Origin: Escherichia coli
Lineage (GTDB): Bacteria; Pseudomonadota; Gammaproteobacteria; Enterobacterales; Enterobacteriaceae
DNA: 64,000 nucleotides
Strand: one strand, 5' to 3'
Assembly (NCBI RefSeq): GCF_050920415.1
Contig: NZ_CP169309.1
Position numbers and translations under genes: made by a program
Shown here: positions 31,242 to 31,680 of the stretch, in pieces
How the letters are laid out: every line of letters starts with the position of its first letter
Position numbering within the stretch: position 1 is the first letter of the stretch
Notes under the pieces: generated by a model
The model's database searches: none
Told to the model about the DNA's origin: nothing
Seen by the model: the letters and a program-made list of their open reading frames with translations, nothing else

Positions 31242-31628
31242 TTAACGATACTTCTGGTGATAGGCGTTGCGGGTCGTTTTCAGTTGCTCTGCGGCAGCCT
31301 GCGCTTCTTTTACTTTACCTTCATTAGCCAGCTTCAGCGCGTCGTCAATCTGACCGACCAGAATGTCGAAACCGTGGCGGAAGTCTTTCATCTCCGGGCT
31401 GTCTGGCGATTTGCCTTCGAGCTTCGGCGGCGTTGCTTTTTGCGCATCCAGCGCCGCTGCGCGCATTTTGGTTAACGCGTCTTTGACTTGCGCCGCGTTA
31501 TCGGCTTTTTCGACCACTTTTAAATTGTCGTTGAGGGTTTCCATATTGTCTTCAAGATCAGCGGCAAACGACGCCGAACTGAATACCAACGAGGAGACTG
31601 CAAGAATAGCTAACAGGCTTTAACGCAT
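31242..31628 (-). pseudogene. cybC: Cytochrome b562 gene with premature stop at codon 3
   Basis: Minus strand reads SD aggaag, then ATG CGT TAA, then in frame [29 protein letters not shown]... (signal peptide plus mature b562). Confidence 0.8.
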
Positions 31629-31680
31629 TGCTCACTTCCTTTTTCTTATTAAGATTTGGCGCGGCAGGTCGCGCCTTTTT

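Follow-up and report, generated by a model that had tools for sequence, protein, structure and literature searches.

An Escherichia coli gene for cytochrome b562 in which a stop codon follows the start after a single sense triplet raises the question of whether such a gene still gives protein by translational restart or is silenced, and, even before that, whether the stop is a genuine inherited change. Here we address it for cybC in the window, by which the whole 64,000-bp stretch of analysed DNA is meant.

The cybC locus and its third codon

On the minus strand, the purine-rich Shine-Dalgarno (SD) region AGGAAGTGAG (31640–31631) is followed by ATG (31628–31626), CGT (31625–31623) and TAA (31622–31620), after which the cybC frame stays open to the stop at 31244–31242, the encoded protein ending in NAYHQKYR. 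An earlier note on this DNA had described the same succession of SD, ATG CGT TAA and open frame through the signal peptide and mature b562, and both its codon numbering and its coordinates proved right; the T that it assigned to the plus strand at 31622 belongs to the coding (minus) strand, the plus base being A. The native ATG, from which PGAP starts a 128-aa CDS in intact relatives, now heads a two-codon mini-ORF (Met-Arg-stop). The Sec signal peptide of 22 codons (31563–31628, minus strand) is interrupted at codon 3 and cannot be translated from the native start, while the mature part of 106 residues (31245–31562, minus strand) is intact and has both Met7 and His102. The mature N-terminus, ADLEDN, was located by alignment to solved chains: it is residue 1 of the 106-residue ones and residue 23 of the deposited 128-residue chain 9tmp_A, where the mature protein occupies residues 23–128.

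The remnant scores 117.3 bits against Pfam PF07361 (cut-off 30) and covers the full-length profile (1–102). The mature protein matches solved E. coli b562 (256b/1qpu) with E = 9e-64 over residues 1–106, differing by two substitutions, I17V and D50G, from the VIEK/LEDK type sequence. Its neighbours are pmbA (31681–33033, minus strand) on one side and nrdG/nrdD (plus strand) on the other, which is the usual position of cybC. By profile, structure-linked sequence and synteny the locus is the cybC gene, but apparently a non-functional one; as it lacks a translatable export signal, "recent nonsense pseudogene" describes it best.

Several elements surround the gene. Between the convergent stops of cybC and nrdG a 10-bp inverted repeat, CCCTGTTGCC / GGTAACAGGG (31204–31231), can be read from the sequence; the terminator scan did not pick it up. 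A GC-rich hairpin, GGCGCG-N6-CGCGCC (31658–31675), separates the pmbA stop from the cybC SD; it is preceded by an A7 run on the minus strand and followed by a T7 run on the plus strand. As an intrinsic terminator it scores for plus-strand transcription only, with the T7 as its tail, and this orientation is that of transcripts from nrdDG running antisense across the whole of cybC. A sigma-70 promoter scan of positions 31000–32200 gave no match. Rfam-type RNA families were not found over cybC, REP/naRNA4-type elements being present elsewhere in the region only: a REP-type element between yjgA and mpl (33727–33804; Rfam naRNA4, RF02564, 86 bits) and weaker, sub-threshold naRNA4 copies between nrdD and nrdG (30562–30714).

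A 521-bp query covering cybC (31200–31720) matched 5,425 of 5,426 complete E. coli genomes, 18 of them with identity of at least 99%. The best two, MFDS1022581 and N96, differ from the window over these positions by one base, namely that which distinguishes AAA from TAA. Since the four closest complete genomes all carry AAA and all encode the intact 128-aa protein WP_001232246.1, TAA is the derived state. A single AAA-to-TAA change at Lys3, as the earlier note had supposed, therefore explains the stop: in the nearest relatives AAA is the sole difference over 521 bp and over 10.6 kb. Apart from the stop base the window has the cybC DNA of the intact WP_001232246.1 allele of MFDS1022581 and N96, with zero further decay, and because one specific base is compared with an otherwise identical intact allele, chance is not the question at issue.

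Over its whole length the window differs from E. coli MFDS1022581 (NZ_CP169399.1, 4579832–4643831) by 3 SNPs in 64,000 bp (99.995% identity). One is K3* in cybC (31622). The second, at 43104, is synonymous in tamB (G1086G), and its window allele is common to N96; the third, at 57881, changes ytfF (A154V), is private to the window and gives the variant protein XVM75219.1, which is encoded on one contig together with the 124-aa cybC product discussed below. Such a set looks natural, being the mix expected between members of one clone, and the lesion merits the description of fresh-looking that it had been given, since the 64 kb contain just two further differences and the rest of cybC is unchanged. 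The other origins considered did not fit. A Shigella source is unsupported in view of the 99.995% identity to E. coli MFDS1022581, and the K-12 allele is only about 95% identical to the window here and carries a 26-bp deletion as its lesion. As for other features of the window, a 101-mer from ytfF (57831–57931) matched 21 of 5,426 complete E. coli genomes at megablast sensitivity, the allele of this lineage being strongly divergent, and a 151-aa ORF with an HTH_Tnp_1 transposase domain (20278–20733, plus strand), IS3-family orfA-like and labelled "transposase" in MFDS1022581, stands alone between ridA and mgtA.

Most probably, and we put this at roughly 85%, a recent and genuine A-to-T transversion converted Lys3 (AAA) into ochre TAA in one clonal E. 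coli sublineage, has been inherited there and has made cybC null or near-null. Ribosomes should still be recruited by the unchanged SD and ATG but stop after Met-Arg, so that the downstream message, with the greater part of the signal peptide and all of mature b562, would remain without meaningful translation. The strain would then have no periplasmic b562, or nearly none; our best estimate from the features of the allele is about 1% of the wild-type level or less. No polar effect on other genes would be expected, since cybC is monocistronic and convergent with nrdG. The lesion would spread clonally and persist because b562 is dispensable, and neither the protein nor a fitness cost of its loss is likely to be found in such a strain.

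Downstream starts and the fate of the message

Whether translation could resume behind the stop depends on what lies there. Potential in-frame starts were listed, and the pairing of their −20 to −4 region with the 3' end of 16S RNA was scored. The native ATG (offset 0) forms a best anti-SD duplex of −6.3 kcal/mol. Behind the stop come a CUG at codon 5 (31614–31616, minus strand; 3 nt past the stop, offset +12, −2.3 kcal/mol), an AUU at codon 8 (minus strand; 12 nt past the stop, offset +21, −0.1 kcal/mol), a UUG at codon 14 (TTG at 31587–31589, minus strand; 30 nt past the stop, offset +39, +0.9 kcal/mol) and the AUG of precursor Met30 (31542–31544, minus strand; offset +84, −1.0 kcal/mol), which encodes the haem ligand Met7 of the mature protein. 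Thus, none of the in-frame downstream starts of cybC has a usable SD, none pairing more strongly than −2.3 kcal/mol, compared with −6.3 for the native one, and no canonical AUG, GUG or UUG lies near the stop, the first being the UUG at 30 nt and the closer candidates only CUG and AUU.

These starts also differ in what remains of the export signal. The 124-aa product of CUG5 keeps the hydrophobic core and the AXA cleavage site and loses the basic residues Arg2 and Lys3, its n-region being left without any positive charge. The 115-aa ORF from UUG14 has 8 signal-peptide residues left, and the 100-aa ORF from AUG30 has no signal peptide. Proteins of 124, 115 and 100 aa are deposited for cybC, all of them as gene-caller output. 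The earlier note had also allowed that a downstream codon might be the functional start in all strains; this is refuted by the ATG-CGT-AAA context found in 4,608 of 5,426 complete genomes, by the 128-aa CDSs annotated from that ATG, and by the 128-residue chain, whose mature protein begins only at residue 23.

Restart proteins after early nonsense mutations are known from lacI amber mutants and T4 rIIB, and the classical restarts use AUG, GUG or UUG. Window cybC resembles these cases superficially, in having a very early stop, in-frame candidate starts downstream and a terminating ribosome near one of them. It differs from them in that CUG is the only codon within 20 nt at which restart is plausible, no SD supports it, UUG comes at 30 nt, and the export signal would be lost in part or completely. 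A CUG-started product, with its whole hydrophobic core and cleavage site, may be exported at a low level; signal peptides without basic residues are slowed and not always dead.

From this one can construct an allele that is hypomorphic and not null, in which restart at the CUG 3 nt past UAA (or else at AUU8 or UUG14) gives some precursor whose signal peptide lacks charge but is complete in all other respects, so that export and cleavage would yield normal mature b562. In its favour, termination-reinitiation in native E. coli gene pairs is efficient at very short distances and only there, 80–100% of it being lost by 38 nt (PMC10666635), and CUG is moreover one of the four near-cognate starts (bioRxiv 10.1101/063800); the retained hydrophobic core and cleavage site of the 124-aa product point the same way. 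CUG5 is thereby the only mechanistically plausible restart site, yet its codon is weak: CUG and AUU starts reach about 1–2% (0.02–3%) of AUG even with optimal SD spacing (bioRxiv 10.1101/063800), whereas here the CUG sits about 18 nt from the cybC SD and pairs at only −2.3 kcal/mol. We infer, in addition, that a 30S subunit which stays bound to the SD after termination would be likelier to start again at the AUG than to turn to the CUG, and the loss of Arg2 and Lys3 would strip the n-region of all its positive charge. A further argument against restart comes from the K-12 remnant, for which PGAP takes ATT as the start: no b562 is expressed from it owing to the disruption of cybC, according to PMC13041623, which cites Trower (1993). 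Taken together, a functional trickle of this kind seems unlikely, and as between reinitiation and silencing, the two outcomes that the earlier note had set side by side, the features of the message favour silencing.

The truncated frame invites one more comparison. Like the two-codon minigenes of lambda bar, it has a strong SD, AUG, one sense codon and UAA. Minigenes of this type are inhibitory on over-expression with scarce tRNA. Otherwise their inhibition needs Pth deficiency (PMC2490762). AUG-CGU-UAA here differs from lambda bar in occurring as one copy in the chromosome and in using CGU, a common Arg codon, and for both these reasons no minigene phenotype is expected; since Pth deficiency or over-expression is required, bar-like toxicity was set aside.

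Damage to cybC in K-12 and other lineages

Comparison with the K-12 allele, which the earlier note had proposed, turned out to be only partly a parallel: cybC of K-12 is damaged too, though in another way. There, a 26-bp deletion takes away GTGAG, which is the 3' half of the SD region, as well as the start codon ATG and codons 2–7; its junction occurs in 355 complete genomes, all of them K-12-like laboratory strains among the matches listed. Further changes in K-12 are A100S and Q103K. In MG1655 cybC is described as a pseudogene of unknown function (PMC3349551), and disruption of cybC in K strains is reported in PMC13041623 to block b562 expression; the anti-BRIL Fab BAG2 binds native b562 (same paper). 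In the B strain REL606, on the other hand, cybC is highly expressed in comparison with MG1655 (PMC3446290). A B-lineage expression host from which cybC had been deleted on purpose has served for protein expression, and this, together with the K-12 lesion and the others described below, speaks for the dispensability of b562.

The K-12 pseudogene (b4236) and the window allele concern one gene, flanked by pmbA and nrdG in both. They are alike in having the lesion at the extreme 5' end with the mature part intact, and in that automatic annotation still gives a CDS through a non-canonical start. They are unlike in the extent of the damage, since K-12 combines its deletion with an upstream insert of about 130 bp and amino-acid changes, whereas the window has one substitution with SD and ATG intact. 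K-12 has lost half of the SD together with the ATG, whereas ribosomes on the window message would still load and then terminate. In consequence the two are probably similar, the lack of b562 reported for K strains being what is predicted here. The two lesions are independent and arose on alleles about 95% identical.

Other lesions were met when the 115-aa and 100-aa downstream ORF proteins were tried as markers of the TAA allele, a route that was abandoned as it led only to such lesions, scaffold gaps and contig ends. They comprise a −1 frameshift (locus L008), a +1 frameshift (L016) and a 20-bp deletion of the cybC start (L012). A further, 112-aa form of the protein (P0003) with a foreign N-terminus is encoded on 93 contigs; its first 12 residues (MPDGAETTLTDN...) replace the signal peptide and the first mature residues, which implies a 5' insertion or rearrangement in another, fairly common lineage; the longest of these contigs measures 5.84 Mb. 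That all these lesions cluster at the 5' end of cybC follows from a search conducted through N-terminally shortened proteins and gives no evidence on the true distribution of lesions.

The intergenic regions on both sides of cybC vary as well. In many E. coli, among them K-12 (L003:1565-1720), L012, L016 and L017, a repeat-like insert (about 130 bp) separates the pmbA-proximal hairpin from the cybC SD. The window lineage, having no such insert at about 31641–31657, shows the short 52-bp intergenic form. Between convergent cybC and nrdG a relB/parE toxin-antitoxin pair occurs in L010, L016, L019, L021, L022 and L024, and is absent from the corresponding place in the window (31198–31241).

The TAA allele might also be other than neutral. 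Loss of cybC may have been selected, since its repeated inactivation, by at least five other independent 5' lesions, would suggest that periplasmic b562 is costly in some niches; or the allele may be a tuned hypomorph in which CUG restart provides a trickle of b562 with an uncharged signal peptide. We consider selection of either kind distinctly improbable and retain the neutral reading, that of a recent, clonally inherited nonsense mutation in a dispensable gene.

The ochre allele in independent assemblies and its annotation

The T might instead be a mistake of sequencing or consensus building in a gene that is really intact, and the local context makes this worth considering. GTAAAAG read as GTTAAAG is a shift at the boundary of a homopolymer, of the kind known from long-read consensus. 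To follow the base, a 33-mer centred on it was used, so that every 28-base megablast seed must span that base. Its TAA version occurred in none of the 5,426 complete E. coli genomes, i.e. in no complete RefSeq genome, while the AAA version occurred in 4,608 of them; the exact TAA pattern was also absent from GTDB species representatives and from JGI metagenome contigs. Taken alone, this absence and the place of the T at a T/A-run boundary would be compatible with an artefact. An unrelated assembly, GCA_019431125.1 (L029), offers an example of one: in its interval 540–640 an additional A stands in the A-run of cybC codons 3–4, and in the flanks pmbA is fragmented (132 and 70 aa), as is nrdG (95 aa). 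That assembly looks rich in indel errors, and its interruptions do not look like real lesions.

Independent assemblies of the same clone decide the matter. They were reached through a lineage-restricted treC allele (P0047) located 3.6 kb from cybC; the pmbA allele was rejected as a lineage marker, being far too common (13,258 blocks). Two assemblies, GCA_015518365.1 (L025) and GCA_037967425.1 (L027), match the window base for base along 10,656 bp, the TAA codon included. A third, GCA_045005245.1 (L028), has TAA on DNA identical over 1.6 kb. In a sister assembly, GCA_000194175.2 (L026), the single difference from the window is AAA. TAA is thus carried by at least three assemblies among the matches listed, and these come from different BioSamples. 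The same T in three independent assemblies on identical flanking DNA means that the allele is genuine and clonally inherited, and the other two SNPs against MFDS1022581, one of which is common to N96, look natural too. The sequencing error that the earlier note had reckoned with is effectively refuted. Bypass of the stop by an ochre-suppressor tRNA or by readthrough, giving full-length precursor, is highly improbable as well: an A after UAA does not make for the strongest termination, but the 64-kb window contains no tRNA gene, ochre suppressors are rare in natural isolates, spontaneous readthrough of UAA is about 1e-3 or less, and the predicted mRNA fold around the cybC stop is unremarkable (z = −1.0).

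NCBI annotation treats the damaged alleles inconsistently. In GCA_015518365.1 the TAA DNA between nrdG and pmbA has been left without a protein, while a 124-aa "cytochrome b562" from CUG (P0031) is called in GCA_037967425.1 (L027, 9355–9729), in GCA_045005245.1 (L028, 601–975) and in other places; in K-12 (L003:1719-2084) a 121-aa cybC CDS begins at ATT. Calls from CUG and ATT are driven by homology and are no proof of expression, and as a result of the inconsistency annotation-based presence/absence tables miscount cybC.

The TAA codon adds to the natural loss-of-function alleles of E. coli cybC, which is already known as a pseudogene in K-12, and its biological importance is low. Its value is practical: strains with TAA and their AAA sisters form a near-isogenic natural pair (3 SNPs per 64 kb in the window), which is usable both for the study of the b562 phenotype and for measuring CUG restart after a two-codon ORF.
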